Positions 57,165 to 62,745 of a DNA stretch of 64,000 bases are shown here, piece after piece; positions within the stretch are counted from its first letter, which is position 1, and each line of letters opens with the position of its first letter. Made by a program: the position numbers and the translations under genes. Source of the DNA: an uncultured Actinomycetes bacterium (GTDB taxonomy: Bacteria; Actinomycetota; UBA4738; HRBIN12). The notes beneath the pieces were generated by a model, which searched no databases, was not told where the DNA came from, and saw only the letters and a list, made by a program, of their open reading frames with translations. The stretch spans positions 96,001-160,000 of the forward strand of contig OY969934.1 in NCBI GenBank assembly GCA_963704725.1, read 5' to 3'.

Positions 57165-57287
57165 GCATCTGGGGTGCAATCCAACGGTTCCCGTCTCCGC
57201 GGCACATCCGGCGCCGAATGACCGCGTCGGCGTGCCCGGCCGTCCTAGACTGCGCAAGGCACGCGCGTGAACGATGAGGGGCGGTCC

Positions 57288-57983
57288 ATGAGGAAACGGG
57301 TCATCCGGGCGGGCGAGATCGAGATCGAGGACTCGGAGGGCAGGGTCCGCGCCCGCTTCGGGGTGACGAACGAGGACCTCCCGTTCCTGTCGTTCTACGG
57401 AGCGGACGAGAAGCTCCGGGCCCGGTACGGCGTCCAGCCGGACGGCTCGGCCGGGCTCGCCATCGCCGACGAGGAGGGAAAGGTCCGAGCCACCTTCGGG
57501 CTCTTCTCGGACGGCTCGGCCAGCATGGCGATGGTGGACCGCAACGGGAAGGTGCGTGCCAAGTTCGGCCTGGGCTCCGAGGGCTCGCCGACGCTGGCGC
57601 TGCGGAACAAGGACGGTGAGCTCGGCTTCGTGTACTCGCTTGCCCAGCAAGGGTCTCCGACGATCTCGCTGCAGGACGAGGACGGGAAGGTGCGCGCCCG
57701 GCTCGGCCTGGCGGCGGAGGGATCTCCGATCCTGCGGCTCCTGAACAAGGACGGCGAGCTCCGCGCCATCATGGGGCTCACCGGCGACGGCGCACCGGTC
57801 CTGCAGTTCCTCGGCAAGGACGGGGACCCCACGTGGACCGCCCCGAGCTCGTTCGCGGGCCCGGCCTCCGACGAGGGACCCGCCGCCAAGACCGGACGAT
57901 CGTCGAGGAAGGATCCCGTCACCGAGGATGCCCCCGCCGCGTCACCAGCCCCGGCCGAGCCGGAGGCCTCGGAGGGGAGCTGA
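57288..57983 (+). CDS. Hypothetical tandem-repeat protein (about 7.5 x 23-aa repeats)
   Basis: Consensus LxLxDxDGKxRAxFGLxxDGSPx; acidic/Pro tail. Confidence 0.8.
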   Translation: MRKRVIRAGEIEIEDSEGRVRARFGVTNEDLPFLSFYGADEKLRARYGVQPDGSAGLAIADEEGKVRATFGLFSDGSASMAMVDRNGKVRAKFGLGSEGSPTLALRNKDGELGFVYSLAQQGSPTISLQDEDGKVRARLGLAAEGSPILRLLNKDGELRAIMGLTGDGAPVLQFLGKDGDPTWTAPSSFAGPASDEGPAAKTGRSSRKDPVTEDAPAASPAPAEPEASEGS

Positions 57984-57989
57984 AGCCGC

Positions 57990-58499
57990 CTGACGGGGTG
58001 GTGGGTCGCGGCCTTCGTCGTGCAGTGGATCCTGCTCGCGGTGCTCACCGTCGTCGTGGTGGCGCTGGCGCGGCAGATCGGCGTGCTGCACCTGCGGCTG
58101 GACCCGCTGGGGGCGCTCGAGGTGGACGACGAGGGCCCCCCGATCGGTGAGGCGCCGCCCGAACGCACCTCGCGGACCCGCGACGGCACGCCGGTGCTCG
58201 TTGGGGGACCGGGGCCGATGCGGCTCCTGGCCTTCGTCTCCGAGACGTGCCCCATCTGCGAGCGTGTGCTGCCCTCGCTGCCCGCGGCCGCCGCCGCCGC
58301 CGGGCTGATCCCCCAGGTGGTGTCGGACCCCGAGCTCGAGGCGGTCTACCGGGTGCCGGGCGTGCCGTTCCTGGTCGTGTTGGACGAGCTCGGCGTGGTG
58401 CGCTCGAAGGGGACCGTCAACTCGCTCGAGCAGATCGAGGGCCTCGTCGACACAGCGCGGCGGCGCATCGACGACGACGCGCGGGTTCGGACCGGCTGA
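57990..58499 (+). CDS. MauD-like membrane-anchored thioredoxin-fold protein (probable CTG start; first canonical start GTG 58020)
   Basis: TM helix, LARQIGVLHxRL.P.GAL, GPPIGE, CPIC, GVPF (cis-Pro), KGTVNS - the MauD motif pattern. Confidence 0.8.
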   Translation: MTGWWVAAFVVQWILLAVLTVVVVALARQIGVLHLRLDPLGALEVDDEGPPIGEAPPERTSRTRDGTPVLVGGPGPMRLLAFVSETCPICERVLPSLPAAAAAAGLIPQVVSDPELEAVYRVPGVPFLVVLDELGVVRSKGTVNSLEQIEGLVDTARRRIDDDARVRTG

Positions 58500-59023
58500 T
58501 GGGAGCGGTGGCCCGTGCGGAGACCGAGCTCGCCCGCCGGACGAGCCGGCGATCGTTCCTGGGGAAGGTGGGACGCGCCGTCGTCGCGCTCGCCGGCGGG
58601 CCCATGGTCGCGGTAGCGCTGGCGCCGGAGCGGGCCGAGGCCAACCACATCTGCGGGCACACGTACACGACGGGCTCCTGTCCCCACCCGTACGCGCCGC
58701 TCTCGCGGACCGACGCCTACGGCTTCCCGATCCATCCGCACTTCGGCTACCCGGTCGACGACAACGGCTTCATCTACCTCTCCTCGCGACAGCCGCGCCG
58801 CAAGGTGTGCCAGACCGTGGTGCCCGAGCACTACCCGTTCGTCCATCACCCCCGATACGGCGGTGGATGGAGCCGATGCTGCAACGGCCGGGTCCGTCAC
58901 ATCCAGGACTGCTGCTCGTCATCGCGGACGCGGATCAACGGCGACGGCTCGGTCCGGGGGTACTGCGCCCGGAGCCTCCGCGTGTTCTGCATCACGTACC
59001 GTGAGCTGGACGTCCGGTGCTGA
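58499..59023 (+). CDS. Tat-exported Cys-rich protein, distantly MauA (MADH light chain)-like
   Basis: SRRSFLG Tat motif, AEA cleavage site, 10 Cys, W..CC...DCC...YC...C pattern; TGATG coupling to the mauD-like gene. Confidence 0.75.
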   Translation: MGAVARAETELARRTSRRSFLGKVGRAVVALAGGPMVAVALAPERAEANHICGHTYTTGSCPHPYAPLSRTDAYGFPIHPHFGYPVDDNGFIYLSSRQPRRKVCQTVVPEHYPFVHHPRYGGGWSRCCNGRVRHIQDCCSSSRTRINGDGSVRGYCARSLRVFCITYRELDVRC

Positions 59024-60234
59024 GCGAGCCGCTCGTCGCGGCGGTGGTCGCCGCGTCGGTCGTCGCCGGGATCACGGCGCTGTTCGGCCCCTGAGGGCTC
59101 TCGATGGTGGAGACCATCACCCCCGTGGTGCACGGGGGCCGGCGGAGCAGGTGGGCGACGTTCCTCGCCCTGCACGTCGCCGGCGCCACGCTGGCGGCCG
59201 TGGCGTTCGGCGCCCTGCTCGGCGAGGCCGGCGCGCTGCTCGGCGCGCCGTGGGGGAGTGCGGGCGTCGCGCTCGTCGCCGGGTCGGCGGTCCTGTACCT
59301 GGCGCGGGAGACGGTCGGCCTGCGGATCCCGGTTCCCCAGCTCCGCCGCCAGGTCCCCGACTGGTGGCGGACGTTCTTCGGGTTCGGGCCGGCGTCCTTC
59401 CTCTACGGGCTCGGGCTCGGGGTGGGGTTCCTCACGTTCCTGTCCGGCGGCACGCTCGTGGTGGTGGTGGTGGCGGCCGTCGCCGGGGGCCGGCCGGCGC
59501 TCGGGGCGATGCTGATGGGGCCCTTCGGGCTGGCGCGGGGGATGACCGCGCTGGTCGCGATGCGCGCCCGGACGCCGGAGGGCGGCTCCGAGCTCGTCGG
59601 GCGGATCGCCCGGTCTGCGGGCCGTCCCGGATGGCGGGTGGTGCGCTCGGCGGCGCTCGCGGCCGTCGCCGTCGCCGGGCTCGCGGCCGGAGGTCGGCTC
59701 GAGGGCCGGCAGCTGGGAGCCGTTGCGGCGGCGGTCGTCGCCGTGGCGTTCGCCGCGGCCGGCGTGGCCAAGCTGGCGGATCTTCGCTCGTGGCGTCGGG
59801 GCCTCGGCGCGTACGTGCTCCCCCGCCCCGTGGAGCGCGCCGCCTCGGTCGTGGTCCCGGGCGCCGAGCTCGTGGTGGCGACACTGCCGTTCCTCGGACT
59901 GCGCTCGACGGCGGGGCTCGTCGCCCTCGTGGCCCTGGCGGCCTTTTCCGCGGCGACGGTTCGCGCCCGGATCCGGGGCGGCAGCCGGCTTGCGTGCGGC
60001 TGCTTCGGATCGGCGACGCCGCGCGACTACCGGCTCCTGCTCCTTCGCAACGCGCTCCTGGCCGTGGCGGCGATCTCGGCCTGGCGAGGCGGGGGGGATG
60101 CGCCGGTCGCCGCGCTCCGGATGCCGGCGGGATCGGAGCTCCTGCCGGCTGCCATCGTCGCGACCGGGCTGGGGCTCGCCGTGTGGGCCGGGGCGCAGAC
60201 CGCGATCGCCGTTCGGCGCGGGGCCCGGCAATGA
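59017..60234 (+). CDS. MauF-like/MauE fusion membrane protein with in-frame TGA at codon 26 (candidate selenoprotein)
   Basis: GTG 59017 overlaps the upstream stop; TM helix, then F-G-P-[TGA]-G-L-S-M; C-terminal MauE features AGVAKL, PGAEL, CGCFG, LLRN. Confidence 0.7.
59095..59138 (+). promoter_or_regulatory. Candidate bacterial SECIS element
   Basis: Hairpins GATGGT-ggag-ACCATC (59103-59118) and CCCCCGTG-gtg-CACGGGGG (59120-59138) just 3' of the TGA; both loops begin with G. Confidence 0.5.
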
Positions 60235-60827
60235 AGCGGATCGCGCTCGCGGTCGCCGGGATGGCCGCCGTAGCCGTGGCGGCCCTCGCGCTTCCGGCCG
60301 GGGCGACACACACGAACCAGACGGACCCGAACGATACGCCCGGCCGCCTCGACGTTCGCGGGGTCGTGCTGGCTCACGACGAGACGCCGCGGTGGCGCAT
60401 CTCCACGTTCGCCTCGTGGACGACGCGGCAGCTCTGGGACGCGGGCGGGCTCGTCGTCGAGCTCGACACGACGGGCGAGGCCGGGATCGACCACCTCATT
60501 GTCGTCCGATCGGACGGCCGGAAGCTCGTCGCCACCCTCTTCCGGGTTCGGGCCGACGGCTCCGAGCGCCGGGTCGCCAACCTGCACGCCGCCAAGGACG
60601 GCCGGGCGGGGGTCGCGGTCTCGGTCGCGCTGCACCGGCTGACGATCGGCTCCGAGCGAACCTCGTACTTCTGGTCGGTGCTCTCGATGTTCACGGGCGC
60701 GGCGTGTCCCCAGACCTGCCTCGACCACGTGCCCGACGAGGGCATGATCGAGCAGCCGCTGCCCGGGATCACGCCGTCGCCCACACCCACGACGACACCG
60801 AGCCCGACGCCCGGTCTCGGCGGTTGA
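60231..60827 (+). CDS. Secreted hypothetical protein with CxxxC motif and Pro/Thr tail
   Basis: ATGA overlap; signal peptide MKRIALAVAGMAAVAVAALALPAGA; CPQTC; TPSPTPTTTPSPTP. Confidence 0.75.
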   Translation: MKRIALAVAGMAAVAVAALALPAGATHTNQTDPNDTPGRLDVRGVVLAHDETPRWRISTFASWTTRQLWDAGGLVVELDTTGEAGIDHLIVVRSDGRKLVATLFRVRADGSERRVANLHAAKDGRAGVAVSVALHRLTIGSERTSYFWSVLSMFTGAACPQTCLDHVPDEGMIEQPLPGITPSPTPTTTPSPTPGLGG

Positions 60828-60879: not shown

Positions 60880-62745
60880 ATGTCCGCCGACGCCCTGATC
60901 ACCAACGCCAACGGGCGTCGCCCCGGGCTCGGCCGGGGGCGGGAGCCGGCGGCCGCGCTCACCGCGGTGGTCGAGGACCTCGCGGGCGAGCTGTCGCTCC
61001 GCCCGCTCCTCGAGCGGATCCTCCTGCACTCGACCGAGCTGCTCGGGTGCGACGCCGGATCGATCTGCCTCGTCGACGAGTCCGCCGGTGTCTACCGCAA
61101 GGAGGCGGACATCGGGGTGGCCTGCCAATCGGGACGCGTCTTCCCCCTGACGGAGGGCGTGACCGGCGCGGTCGTGAAGCGTCGGGGCCCGGTCATCTTC
61201 GCCGACTACGCCGAGGTGCCGGGCGGCCACGTCCGGCCGGAGGACCGCGCGTCGCTGCGCGGCGTGATCGGGGTCCCGATCTGGTGGCGTGGCGAGATCG
61301 TGGGGTCCTGCGTGGTGTTCTCCCGAGACCCCGGGCGCACGTTCTCCCTGCAGGACGCCGAGCTGCTCGGGCTGTTCGCGAAGCACGCCGCCATCGCCGT
61401 GACGAACGCGCGCCTGCACGAGGCCTCGGAGGCCAACGCGAGGGCGGAGGCGACCGCGGCCGAGAGGGAGCGCATCGCGCGGGAGGTGCACGACACCGTG
61501 GCGCAGGGGCTGGTTTCGGTCCTGCTCCAGCTCCGGGCCGCCGACGGCGCGGTCGCCGAGGGGCGGTCCGAGGACGCCGTGGCCGCGCTCCGCGAGGCGC
61601 GCGCGACCGCAGAGGCCGCCTTCGAGGAGACCCGCCGCAGCGTGCTCGGCCTGGCGCCGTCGCCGCTCGAGGGCCGCTCGCTGGAGGAGGCGCTGGAGCT
61701 CGAGGTCGACTGGGCGAACCGGATCGGCGTGGCGGACCTGCGGCTGGTGACGGCGGGACCGCAAGTACCGTTGCCGGCTGAGCTGGCGCTCACGCTCTTC
61801 CGCATCGCGCAGGAGGCGCTCACGAACGCGCTCCGCCACGCGCGGGCACGATCGGTGCGGTTCGGGCTCGTGTACGGGCCGGCCGACGTCACGCTGCTCG
61901 TCCAGGACGACGGGGCGGGGTTCGACCAAGCGCAGATCGATCAGGCCGGCGAGCTCGGGCACGGGGGCCTCCGGGGGATGGCCGAGCGGGCGCACCTTCT
62001 CGGAGGCACGCTCGAGCTCGACTCGACCCCAGGATGGGGAACGCGCGTCCGCGCCTCGATCCCCCTCCCGCTGGCTTCGCCCGCCGATGCCGAGCCGCTG
62101 GTCGGTCCCGTCCGGGTGCTCGTGGTCGACGACCACGCGATCGCCCGGGCGGGGATCGTCCGGCTCCTGTCCTCGGCGGGCGCGGCGGGGAGCGACCCCG
62201 CGCTTCGGATCGTCGGCGAGGCCTCCTCGGGCGAGGAGGCGGTGGCGGCCTGGCGCCAGCTTCGGCCGGACGTGGTCCTCATGGACCTCCGGATGCCGGG
62301 CGGTGACGGGATCGACGCGATCGCGCGGATCCGTCGCGAGGACCCGCAGGCTCGCATCGTGGCGCTCACGGCGTTCACGAACGACGATCTGGTCGCCGGC
62401 GCGATCCGAGCCGGCGCGCGCGGCTACGTCGGCAAGAGCGCAACGGTCGCGGAGCTCGTCGGCGCAGTGCTGAGCGCCTCGCGCGGCGACACAGTGCTGT
62501 CGGGTGCGGCGGCGGACCGTCTCCGCTCGCACCTGAATGGGTCGGGCGGCTACCTGGCCCTCACCGACCGCGAGCGCGAGGTGGTTCGCTACCTCGAACG
62601 CGGAACGCCAGATCGGGAGATCGCCGCGGCGCTGCATATCTCGATCAAAACGGTCGAGAAGCACGTCGGCTCCATCCTGCGCAAGACCGGCAGCCAGAAC
62701 CGCACGCAGGTTGCCGCGTTGGCGCGTGAGTACACTCGCGCCTAG
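60880..62745 (+). CDS. Hybrid GAF-histidine kinase-receiver-LuxR HTH transcription factor
   Basis: GAF domain, ERERIAREVHD (HisKA_3), QEALTNALRH/DDGAGF, VLVVDDH/DVVLMD, LTDREREV...KTVEKHV. Confidence 0.9.
   Translation: MSADALITNANGRRPGLGRGREPAAALTAVVEDLAGELSLRPLLERILLHSTELLGCDAGSICLVDESAGVYRKEADIGVACQSGRVFPLTEGVTGAVVKRRGPVIFADYAEVPGGHVRPEDRASLRGVIGVPIWWRGEIVGSCVVFSRDPGRTFSLQDAELLGLFAKHAAIAVTNARLHEASEANARAEATAAERERIAREVHDTVAQGLVSVLLQLRAADGAVAEGRSEDAVAALREARATAEAAFEETRRSVLGLAPSPLEGRSLEEALELEVDWANRIGVADLRLVTAGPQVPLPAELALTLFRIAQEALTNALRHARARSVRFGLVYGPADVTLLVQDDGAGFDQAQIDQAGELGHGGLRGMAERAHLLGGTLELDSTPGWGTRVRASIPLPLASPADAEPLVGPVRVLVVDDHAIARAGIVRLLSSAGAAGSDPALRIVGEASSGEEAVAAWRQLRPDVVLMDLRMPGGDGIDAIARIRREDPQARIVALTAFTNDDLVAGAIRAGARGYVGKSATVAELVGAVLSASRGDTVLSGAAADRLRSHLNGSGGYLALTDREREVVRYLERGTPDREIAAALHISIKTVEKHVGSILRKTGSQNRTQVAALAREYTRA

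Follow-up and report, generated by a model that had tools for sequence, protein, structure and literature searches.

Probable selenocysteine at an in-frame TGA of a CcdA-like/MauE fusion membrane protein

An in-frame TGA codon in a gene for a membrane protein of an uncultured Actinomycetes bacterium is almost certainly decoded as selenocysteine (Sec). The gene lies in a window of 64,000 nucleotides, which is the whole stretch of DNA that was analysed (contig OY969934.1, positions 96,001 to 160,000). Overall, the best explanation, and in our judgement a very probable one, is that the gene encodes a 405-residue polytopic membrane selenoprotein that arises by UGA recoding and in which a CcdA/DsbD-type domain and a MauE domain would form a relay. 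The in-frame TGA identifies a large family of proteins that are truncated at the Sec codon in public annotation. The initial annotation had likewise preferred Sec at residue 26 of a 405-residue membrane protein to a nonsense change followed by a restart at ATG 59104. This proposal is supported by the presence of the Sec machinery, by a column that holds either TGA or Cys, by upstream codons that are kept as protein, and by a covarying structure of the SECIS type.

The window sequence bears out all coordinates given earlier for the gene, from its GTG start and in-frame TGA to the ATG at 59104 and the stop codon at 60232–60234. Between the GTG and the TGA lie 25 sense codons, and the ATG and the stop are in the same frame. 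When TGA is translated as U, the product has 405 residues with U26; the mechanical list of open reading frames takes the ATG as start and gives 376 amino acids. A GTG or ATG is found at the aligned start position in 16 of 19 relatives. As regards expression, none of the listed sequencing runs was recorded as RNA; four DNA runs each contained 5–7% of the sampled words. The features of the locus are listed in Table 1.

Table 1. Features of the locus, with positions in the window.
Feature	Position	Strand	Description
238-aa repeat protein	57267..57983	+	no Pfam family; co-conserved 5' of the MauD-like gene
MauD-like membrane-anchored thioredoxin-fold protein	58020..58499	+	C-P-I-C motif; co-conserved in operon
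Secreted Cys-rich protein	58499..59023	+	twin-arginine signal, 10 invariant Cys
Whole gene	59017..60234	+	405 codons + stop, codon 26 probably Sec; CcdA-like N-terminal domain fused to MauE domain
N-terminal membrane domain, residues 1–218	59017..59670	+	putative divergent CcdA/DsbD superfamily member with a single Sec
GTG start codon	59017..59019	+	overlaps the upstream gene's stop TGA at 59021–59023 (GTGCTGA)
TGA, almost certainly read as selenocysteine (U26)	59092..59094	+	motif F-G-P-U-G-L-S-M; column invariant as TGA or Cys
Hairpin 1	59103..59118	+	6-bp stem, GGAG loop, begins 8 nt past TGA
Hairpin 2, best bSECIS candidate	59120..59138	+	8-bp G+C-rich stem, GUG loop, -14.5 kcal/mol
MauE domain PF07291, residues 233–355	59713..60081	+	E 1.3e-20, 74.5 bits, cut-off 27
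C327-G-C329 motif of MauE domain	59995..60003	+	invariant in 13 fused proteins and 17 MauE-domain sequences
198-aa downstream protein	60231..60827	+	ATG overlaps the membrane gene's stop (ATGA); signal-peptide-like N-terminus by eye

Relatives carry the TGA at the same position. It occupies the same alignment column in all 19 relatives' loci in which the N-terminus is covered (18 of 18 when the unpublished G011 is left out), and full-length homologues with a single internal TGA include relatives down to 43–47% identity. In a phylum-wide sample of 60 loci, column 26 was TGA in 46 (Sec forms) and Cys in 12 (Cys forms), and two had no HSP over the column; as related genomes are not independent of one another, such counts of Sec and Cys forms are higher than the number of events that happened independently. 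Homologues of both kinds had been named as support in the initial annotation, and the TGA is clearly not unique to this assembly. Since it recurs at one column in both the relatives and the phylum sample, the in-frame TGA cannot be attributed to chance. Among 53 sequences, P25, C/U26 and G27 do not vary, and Q112, W117 and R174 are invariant residues of the family as well. The stretch 5' of the TGA is conserved as protein, which had also been named as support: the 20 upstream codons evolve as coding sequence, with entropies of 0.84, 0.51 and 1.22 at the three successive codon positions among 36 close Sec forms.

The genome itself contains the machinery for Sec, another point on which the initial annotation had called for a check. 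A tRNA-Sec was found at 75.1 bits (cut-off 47), called by ARAGORN as SeC with anticodon tca. The genes selB (292.7 bits) and selA (472.1 bits), which lie next to each other, and selD (376.3 bits) all score above their curated cut-offs. The genome also has an FdhA-like gene with a TGA in the context ...T-U-H-A-P... (U-H-x-P). Across the family, selA above the cut-off was present in 35 of 38 Sec-form genomes, as against 4 of 12 Cys-form genomes. Among the remaining Sec-form genomes, selA was not matched in one that is 98% complete (G270), and it was matched only as fragments in two others. The SelA/SelB/SelC/SelD system of the genome would recode the TGA as Sec, guided by a putative signal just 3' of it that consists of the 6-bp hairpin followed by the 8-bp G+C-rich hairpin, whose loop starts with an invariant G.

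Both hairpins show a pattern specific to the Sec forms. According to section 5 of a 2026 review (PMC13188914), a bSECIS element has a loop of 3–9 nt, a stem of 4–16 bp, a G among the first two loop bases, a spacing of 16–37 nt and a minimum free energy of at most -7.5 kcal/mol. Hairpin 2 agrees with all four constraints quoted there, and its loop lies 33 nt from the TGA. The first base of this loop is G in 52 of 52 Sec forms, the loop start being GU or GG in all 52, and changes on both sides of the stem occur at 7 of its 8 pairs. It reaches -7.5 kcal/mol or lower in 48 of 52 Sec forms versus 4 of 12 Cys forms, and is weak in register in 4 of 52 Sec forms. Hairpin 1 sits 14 nt from the TGA, which is below the 16–37 nt quoted for the published model. 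Five or six of its six pairs can form in 51 of the 52 Sec forms, as against four or fewer in 11 of 12 Cys forms; of 51 distinct sequences, 38 have GC and 12 have CG at its pair 16–23. The hairpins covary over the 52 Sec forms and are degraded in the 12 Cys forms. Taken together, pairing in the two hairpins holds in 92.0% of cells compared to 81.3% in shuffles, with slid controls at 36–61%. Both-side changes occur at 10 of 14 pairs, and none of 500 shuffles reached any of the five measures. Moreover, synonymous sites are frozen at codons +3 to +14, where TCG, ACC, ATC and CCC are each found in 36 of 36 sequences.

Other readings of the TGA fit these data less well. Reassignment of the genetic code was ruled out, because TGA terminates neighbouring genes. 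The same ordinary stops would suit an alternative in which this TGA is also a true stop, separating a 25-residue hydrophobic peptide that starts at GTG 59017 from a 376-aa MauE-family protein that starts at ATG 59104. This ATG is in frame and conserved. In line with public annotation, the gene-caller products of all of the best 120 database relatives are 355–385 aa long, and all of these lack helix 1 and the active residue. Yet, we consider a true stop very improbable. Cys forms run uninterrupted through column 26 with TGC or TGT, and Met30 is a conserved internal residue in them, and hence not a genuine start. Translation from Met30 would leave out the greater part of transmembrane helix 1 together with the one redox residue that is invariant in the domain. 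A true stop would also leave the covarying hairpins that are peculiar to the TGA forms, and the co-occurrence with selA, without explanation. Alternatively, the gene might be broken, either by an assembly error or by a nonsense mutation that recently turned TGC into TGA; a single base separates TGA from a Cys codon. The chance of this is practically negligible, given that the same TGA occurs at 46 loci, with identities as low as ~27%, in genomes that come from many families and were assembled independently, and that purifying selection acts on either side of it.

Shortened gene models are common in this family. A profile search retrieved 5758 clusters (50% identity) from public data at E ≤ 0.001. 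Among the best 150 of the 5758 representatives, 96 are full-length with Cys, 53 start just past position 26, and one reads the TGA as W. The start of the shortened representatives is exactly Met30 in 52 of the 53, the other (P0175) using a nearby start. The CcdA-like/MauE family is absent from the table of 119 families in the 2026 review (PMC13188914), and we found no earlier report of such a selenoprotein family in the text of open-access papers. A search of NCBIfam, including NF045694, gave no match for the window protein (E ≤ 0.01) or for 11 family members (E ≤ 1).

Sequence comparisons support the N-terminal domain as a putative divergent member of the CcdA/DsbD superfamily, which would have kept the Pro-Cys of TM1 as Pro-Sec and lost the Cys of TM4. 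The copy in the window is covered by no Pfam or NCBIfam model, and it has no PF02683 or PF13386 match at E ≤ 1. Among 53 family members, PF13386 was matched by 13 (best E 3.8e-8) and PF02683 by 11 (best E 1.2e-6). An hhalign comparison with CcdA of the same clade gave E 1.8e-4 over 163 columns, with a probability of only 48%. This alignment places U26 on the TM1 Cys of CcdA, with P25-U26 against S-P-C. The second Pro-Cys site, in TM4, is absent: T-P-C-I-G-P of CcdA aligns with L-T-F-L-S-G, which puts the Cys on F141, and the 53 sequences have no second invariant Cys column. The earlier description of the protein as DsbD-like is thus supported at the level of the superfamily, through the Pfam matches of family members and the alignment to CcdA. 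Its other claim, that Sec26 is the only redox residue of the domain, agrees with our results as well, since the domain in the window is devoid of Cys and column 26 is the sole invariant Cys/Sec column in 53 members. The genome also encodes a separate canonical CcdA.

In the AF2 model (pLDDT 95.3, pTM 0.91), helix 1 is broken at residue 24 (H4–23, H25–33). Structure searches gave weak results. With the domain model as query, Foldseek gave no PDB match at E ≤ 0.001, and CcdA (5vkv) ranked fourth with E 0.5 and TMq 0.36. The wide search with VIA was topped by NqrE (Z 6.2), RnfA (5.9) and RnfE (5.5), all within the range that this tool treats as noise for helical bundles, and CcdA 5vkv was not among the 50 matches listed. 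A profile of the domain searched against PDB sequences returned a chance match at E 3.6 only, and tblastn of the domain against a plasmid collection gave no match.

The C-terminal MauE domain and the neighbouring genes provide the context of the protein. The 13 fused proteins have no Cys/Sec columns other than U26, C327 and C329, and none of these three varies. A Pfam scan found a MauE gene nearby in 8 of 16 unfused loci. Sec and Cys forms alike are flanked by the MauD-like and Cys-rich genes. The MauD-like gene matches TIGR02661 (MauD) with E 7.9e-25 and 87.4 bits, which is under the equivalog cut-off of 188.6, and Thioredoxin_3 with E 2.9e-4. The Cys-rich protein is likely a client of the redox system. 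Weak leads only link it to TTQ amine-dehydrogenase light chains: VIA gave the AADH small subunit (light chain) at Z 3.1 and the MADH light chain at Z 2.6, and an Atlas neighbour cluster has PF02975 in 17% of its members. Pfam scans of 40 individual Cys-rich homologues gave no PF02975 match at E ≤ 1, phmmer and profile searches against PDB sequences found no amine-dehydrogenase light chain, and Foldseek, which ranked the AADH small subunit 32nd, had no match with E ≤ 0.001. An amine-dehydrogenase heavy-chain gene was not recognised near the locus. Downstream, the 198-aa protein has no family match in Pfam or NCBIfam and is co-conserved in most fused-type loci. The 238-aa repeat protein may belong to the operon.

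These associations suggest that the protein probably plays a thiol/selenol redox role together with MauE and MauD. A plausible prediction is that Sec26 and C327-G-C329 constitute a membrane redox relay that serves the MauD-like thioredoxin and the secreted Cys-rich protein. Sec26 would sit at the Pro-induced break of transmembrane helix 1, which is the site of the first catalytic Cys of CcdA, and could be linked transiently, as a selenylsulfide, to the invariant C327-G-C329 motif in the fused MauE domain. The MauE half would correspond to the separate neighbouring MauE gene of other lineages, and the CcdA-like domain and MauE together would act as an intramembrane redox relay. This relay might exchange reducing equivalents, in either direction, with the MauD-like thioredoxin-fold protein two genes upstream. 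That protein in turn may make or rearrange the five disulfides in the adjoining twin-arginine-exported Cys-rich protein. We see an appreciable chance, although short of even, that a CcdA-type scaffold minus its second cysteine became a one-selenol transmembrane redox wire, which forms a membrane selenylsulfide with the C-G-C of MauE, is dedicated to maturing the Cys-rich family, and is widespread. The clients of such a wire would be secreted small Cys-rich proteins of Actinomycetota, which possibly bear a quinone cofactor. For the direction of electron flow, we favour, with considerable doubt, a reductive or isomerase role by analogy with transfer from CcdA to ResA/TlpA.

The same parts might also work in reverse, with the C-G-C of MauE and Sec26 forming a DsbB/VKOR-like oxidase that takes electrons from the MauD-like protein while the latter oxidises the client, and passes them to a quinone. 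The client must gain five disulfides from its 10 invariant Cys, which would suit an oxidase, and MauE is grouped with the DoxX-like membrane proteins, a group with some quinone-linked members. However, the nearest relatives of the N-terminal domain, CcdA and DsbD, are reductant importers, and MauD resembles reductases of the TlpA/ResA type, so that we regard the oxidase direction as unlikely. Still less likely, in our view, is that Sec26 is real but takes no part in a thiol-disulfide relay, its selenol instead binding or carrying a soft metal or chalcogen (Cu, Hg, Se or S species) or ligating an intramembrane cofactor, with MauE and MauD as accessories. NqrE and RnfA/E, in which the membrane Cys are ligands of an Fe-S centre, are the best structural neighbours (Z 5.5–6.2, within noise). 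The domain has one redox residue only, as opposed to the defining pair of CcdA, and the invariant polar Q112, W117 and R174 could line a binding site. Moreover, transporters occur among known membrane selenoproteins, such as MerT-like, YeeE/YedE, SO_0444 and SaoP (PMC13188914, Table 1). Nevertheless, the ties by fusion and neighbourhood to MauE, to the thioredoxin-fold MauD-like protein and to a secreted protein with 10 Cys fit disulfide chemistry better, no metal-handling genes were recognised in the loci scanned, and the structural Z-scores are under the level that the tool treats as meaningful for helical bundles.

If the redox selenoprotein reading is correct, a large family would be added to the prokaryotic selenoproteome, perhaps among the most widespread of those missed by standard annotation pipelines, and a systematic annotation error would be corrected. 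Because sister lineages hold both Sec and Cys forms, a Sec that lies within a transmembrane helix of a scaffold for electron transfer would offer a natural experiment on Sec versus Cys in the membrane. The protein would also connect MauE/DoxX-type proteins, whose chemistry is little understood, with a defined partner and three defined redox residues.

Several known systems resemble this protein in part. It shares the location of Sec in or near membrane segments of redox or transport proteins with the selenoproteins TsoB, MerT-like, YeeE/YedE, SaoP and SO_0444, as far as these are described in Table 1 of the 2026 review (PMC13188914). There, TsoB (NF045694) is described as rhodanese/DsbD fusion-like. 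TsoB, however, has two Sec in a UxxxxU motif and other partners, whereas the window protein has a single Sec in G-P-U-G.

Like the clusters for methylamine dehydrogenase (mau), the locus combines a C-terminal PF07291 MauE domain with an upstream MauD-like gene and an adjoining small secreted twin-arginine Cys-rich protein. A twin-arginine signal is also carried by MauA. In contrast to mau clusters, the MauD-like protein falls below the TIGR02661 cut-off, the Cys-rich protein gave no match to PF02975 or to PDB sequences, and a heavy-subunit gene was not recognised nearby. The CcdA/DsbD transmembrane domain (PF02683 DsbD_TM, PF13386 DsbD_2) is likewise polytopic and helical, with Pro-(Cys/Sec) at the break of TM1, and CcdA-ResA/TlpA pairs similarly have an extracytoplasmic thioredoxin-fold partner. 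Unlike CcdA, the window protein has no second catalytic Cys; it has Sec in place of Cys, its own invariant Q112, W117 and R174, and a MauE that is fused or linked to it.

The reading frame of the membrane gene was as the initial annotation had described it, with the GTG start, the in-frame TGA, the ATG and the stop codon all at the coordinates it had assigned to them. Translation of the TGA as selenocysteine (U) yields 405 residues, with U26 placed within F-G-P-U-G-L-S-M. The mechanical ORF list shows only a 376-aa portion, starting from ATG 59104.

Coordinates of the membrane gene, its candidate SECIS hairpins and other features; G000 is the window's own genome
Feature	Sequence	Coordinates	Strand	Description
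238-aa repeat protein	window	57267-57983		~22-residue repeats of G-K-V-R-A-x-F-G-L type
Secreted Cys-rich protein	window	58499-59023		twin-arginine signal; 10 invariant Cys
Start codon GTG	window	59017-59019	+	overlaps upstream gene's stop 59021-59023 (GTGCTGA)
In-frame TGA	window	59092-59094	+	preceded by 25 sense codons after GTG
Hairpin 1	window	59103-59118	+	6 bp, GGAG loop, 14 nt from TGA
Hairpin 2	window	59120-59138	+	8 bp, GUG loop, -14.5 kcal/mol
Stop codon	window	60232-60234	+	one frame from TGA via ATG 59104
621-aa ORF	window	60880-62745		directly downstream of operon
Formate-dehydrogenase-like gene	G000 contig C1 (outside window)	~1791429 (L103 position 1609)		in-frame TGA
Canonical CcdA	G000 contig C1	3046170-3046802	-	PF02683, 56.4 bits

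The TGA recurs across the family. A six-frame search found the protein in 27 of 41 related genomes, with one internal TGA in every full-length match at identities down to 43–47%. The TGA stood at the identical column in all 19 loci with extracted N-termini (18/18 leaving out the unpublished genome G011), within the near-invariant surroundings L-F-G-P-U-G-L-S-M-V-E-T-I-T-P-V-V-H-G-G. In an even sample of the window's own phylum, to which the genome searches were confined, 84 of 401 genomes (a tally with nine unpublished genomes) had matches to the N-terminal domain (N-domain), mostly with one TGA. The initial annotation had proposed homologues with TGA or Cys at this column as support, and tblastn found both: among 60 loci, column 26 was TGA in 46 (5 of them from unpublished genomes) and TGC or TGT in 12, while two gave no alignment over the column. 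The family-wide motif is (W/F)-(S/G)-P-[U/C]-G-x-S-M, and P25, C/U26, G27, Q112, W117, G131, G135 and R174 are invariant in an alignment of 53 sequences.

The segment before the TGA also bears the marks of a protein, as the same annotation had anticipated. In 36 close Sec forms, the 20 codons that precede the TGA showed entropies of 0.84, 0.51 and 1.22 at the first, second and third codon positions, and conserved Ala, Ser and Gly columns used four codons each. Such a pattern points to coding sequence under purifying selection. In the Cys forms, the residue equivalent to Met30 (ATG 59104) lies inside the protein and hardly varies; in the Sec forms it would merely have the appearance of a start codon.

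Reassignment of the genetic code could also place a TGA inside a gene, and was ruled out because neighbouring genes in the window stop at TGA. The genome, a single contig of 3.45 Mb, contains the Sec machinery on which the proposal depended: tRNA-Sec (RF01852 at 75.1 bits against a cut-off of 47; called SeC with anticodon tca by ARAGORN), selB (292.7 bits) immediately adjoining selA (472.1 bits), and selD (376.3 bits), all above their curated cut-offs. Judged from these genes, the organism should be able to decode UGA as Sec. A formate-dehydrogenase-like molybdopterin oxidoreductase is likely a second selenoprotein of this genome, with its TGA in the context S-C-N-R-T-U-H-A-P-S, followed by a stem-loop; the T-U-H-A-P agrees with the UHxP motif given for FdhA in Table 1 of a 2026 review of prokaryotic selenoproteins (PMC13188914).

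Across genomes, selA scored above the cut-off in 35 of 38 with the TGA form vs. 4 of 12 with the Cys form. Because related genomes are not independent, this comparison serves to check consistency and is not a statistical result. Of the three TGA-form exceptions, one has selA in pieces (G255), one has a fragment only (G035), and in one that is 98% complete (G270) the search for selA gave no match. In genome G198, selA lies ~2 kb from a stand-alone Sec-form N-domain gene, on the opposite strand (contig C1 1777798-1781675).

Downstream of the TGA, the third positions of the first two codons vary freely among the 36 close Sec forms, whereas codons +3 to +14 are frozen at synonymous sites (for instance, TCG, ACC, ATC and CCC in 36/36 each, and GGG in 35/36). 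Two hairpins fall here, and we scored them on a gap-free alignment of 52 Sec forms (51 distinct). Paired cells amounted to 92.0% vs. 81.3% in shuffles, both-sided changes occurred in 10 of 14 pairs, and none of 500 shuffles equalled the observed value on any of five measures. As a control, sliding the 3' partners lowered pairing to 36–61%. The distant Sec subgroup encodes other amino acids (M-L-A-S-I-T-P-L-G-E-R-G) and retains both hairpins via compensatory changes, such as those at pair 16-23 (GC 38, CG 12) and pair 34-42 (GC 34, CG 10, AU 3). Both hairpin structures are lost in the 12 Cys forms. Hairpin 1 keeps at least 5 of 6 pairs in 51/52 Sec forms vs. at most 4 of 6 in 11/12 Cys forms, and hairpin 2 reaches -7.5 kcal/mol or lower in 48/52 Sec forms vs. 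4/12 Cys forms. The bacterial SECIS model in the review specifies a loop of 3–9 nt, a stem of 4–16 bp, a spacing of 16–37 nt, a G within the first two loop positions and a minimum free energy of at most -7.5 kcal/mol (PMC13188914). Hairpin 2 satisfies all four constraints published there, while the 14-nt spacing of hairpin 1 is slightly below that range (PMC13188914). In 52/52 Sec forms the loop of hairpin 2 opens with G, followed by U or G. Either hairpin may be the element bound by SelB.

Public gene calls mostly cut off the N-terminus of the Sec forms. Searched with a profile, 1.84 billion representatives yielded 5758 clusters at E <= 0.001; tightening the threshold left 3704 at <= 1e-10 and 678 at <= 1e-30. 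Among the best 150 of the 5758, 96 were full-length with Cys, 53 started just past the TGA position (52 exactly at the Met30 equivalent, one close by) and one had the TGA translated as W. In the public gene call P0201, the Sec TGA was read as W and the Cys-rich and membrane genes were joined as one 481-aa product, which probably arose because the gene caller applied a code with TGA=Trp. All 120 top-ranking database relatives were 355–385 aa long, cut short at the TGA, and named 'MauE/DoxX family redox-associated membrane protein', 'methylamine utilization protein MauE', 'uncharacterized membrane protein YphA (DoxX/SURF4 family)', 'hypothetical protein' or nothing. The Cys forms looked up were nameless or 'hypothetical', except for one 'MFS family permease'.

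The window's N-domain itself matched no Pfam or NCBIfam model. Scanned one by one against Pfam, 13 of 53 family members matched PF13386 DsbD_2 (best E 3.8e-8) and 11 matched PF02683 DsbD_TM (best E 1.2e-6), and any other family was matched by one member at most. Aligned profile to profile with 13 canonical CcdA of the same clade, the family matched over 163 columns (E 1.8e-4, probability 48%); P25-U26 fell on the S-P-C of CcdA helix 1, and the second catalytic Cys of CcdA (T-P-C-I-G-P) fell on F141, where the family lacks Cys. An AF2 model on the family alignment (pLDDT 95.3, pTM 0.91 overall) predicted the segment before the TGA as a helix at pLDDT 92–98, with helix 1 broken at residue 24 (H4-23, then H25-33). 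Foldseek ranked CcdA 5vkv fourth (E 0.5), and the best VIA Z-scores (5.5–6.2; NqrE, RnfA/E) were inside helical-bundle noise. On sequence comparison, we therefore place the N-domain in the CcdA/DsbD superfamily, where it forms a divergent branch. We do not class it as a CcdA, since of the Cys pair that defines CcdA it has the Pro-Cys/Sec site of helix 1 but lacks the second catalytic Cys. Since the genome also encodes a canonical CcdA, the Sec domain would be an addition to this housekeeping protein, not a replacement.

A MauE domain (PF07291, E 1.3e-20) makes up the C-terminal half, and U26, C327 and C329 are the only Cys/Sec columns in 13 fused proteins, all invariant. Stand-alone N-domain genes encode ~215–230 aa; of 16 such loci scanned with Pfam, 8 had a MauE gene no more than ~2.6 kb away, and in other loci it was at the locus edges. 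That the N-domain and MauE are fused in one lineage and linked in operons elsewhere supports their being a functional pair. Throughout the close group the gene order is repeat protein, MauD-like protein, Cys-rich TAT protein, N-domain (fused or unfused) and 198-aa secreted protein; in several Cys-form loci this is reduced to the MauD-like and Cys-rich genes adjoining the N-domain. The MauD-like protein matched TIGR02661 (E 7.9e-25) without reaching the equivalog cut-off. In most close relatives the gene for the repeat protein is conserved together with the MauD-like gene, directly upstream of it; the protein matched no Pfam family. The 621-aa ORF has GAF, HisKA_3, HATPase, receiver and LuxR-type GerE domains.

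Other architectures occur. Cys forms at L073, L075, L079 and related loci (~476–516 aa) carry a ~280-aa C-terminal extension without a match in Pfam or NCBIfam, and the Sec form at L068 is fused to a different extracytoplasmic extension of ~290 aa. In distant Sec forms (L086, L091, L095, L097), a ~160–180-aa gene directly follows and overlaps the stand-alone N-domain gene; its product matched no Pfam family and may represent a different client or partner set. At L091 and L095, an LGFP-repeat protein comes next.

The Cys-rich protein has an invariant motif, G-x-W-x-R-C-C (G122, W124, R126, C127 and C128 in the window's copy). Sequence searches against Pfam and PDB gave no match, and no amine-dehydrogenase light chain. 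PF02975 occurs in 17% of members of one Atlas neighbour cluster, and VIA, with only 15 chains at Z >= 2, placed the AADH small subunit best (Z 3.1) and the MADH light chain third (Z 2.6). These leads converge and weakly suggest a relation to TTQ amine-dehydrogenase light chains. Possibly, the protein represents a family of small subunits, similar to those of quinoproteins, that has so far gone unrecognised.

Through its TM1/TM4 Cys pair, CcdA passes two electrons from one side of the membrane to ResA/TlpA-type thioredoxins on the other. By analogy, Sec26 would lie within the bilayer at the helix break. Since the N-domain lacks an internal partner, Sec26 would most plausibly exchange a selenylsulfide with the MauE C-G-C, and this pair would link the cytoplasm to the MauD-like thioredoxin, which in turn would act on the 10-Cys secreted protein as its putative client. 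Alternatively, electrons might flow in the oxidase, DsbB-like direction, or the lone membrane selenol might bind a metal or chalcogen.

Table 1 of the review lists 119 prokaryotic selenoprotein families or subfamilies, and none of these entries is a MauE or CcdA-type protein of this kind (PMC13188914). The nearest is TsoB, a rhodanese/DsbD fusion-like protein (NF045694) with a UxxxxU motif (PMC13188914). Family members matched no NCBIfam model, NF045694 included, and we found no prior report of the CcdA-like/MauE family among openly available papers; subscription journals or supplementary tables could hold one. Sec/Cys pairs combined with N-terminal truncation are the standard logic of selenoprotein discovery, and membrane selenoproteins are already known. 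The family is therefore a variation on a known selenoprotein theme rather than a categorically new one.
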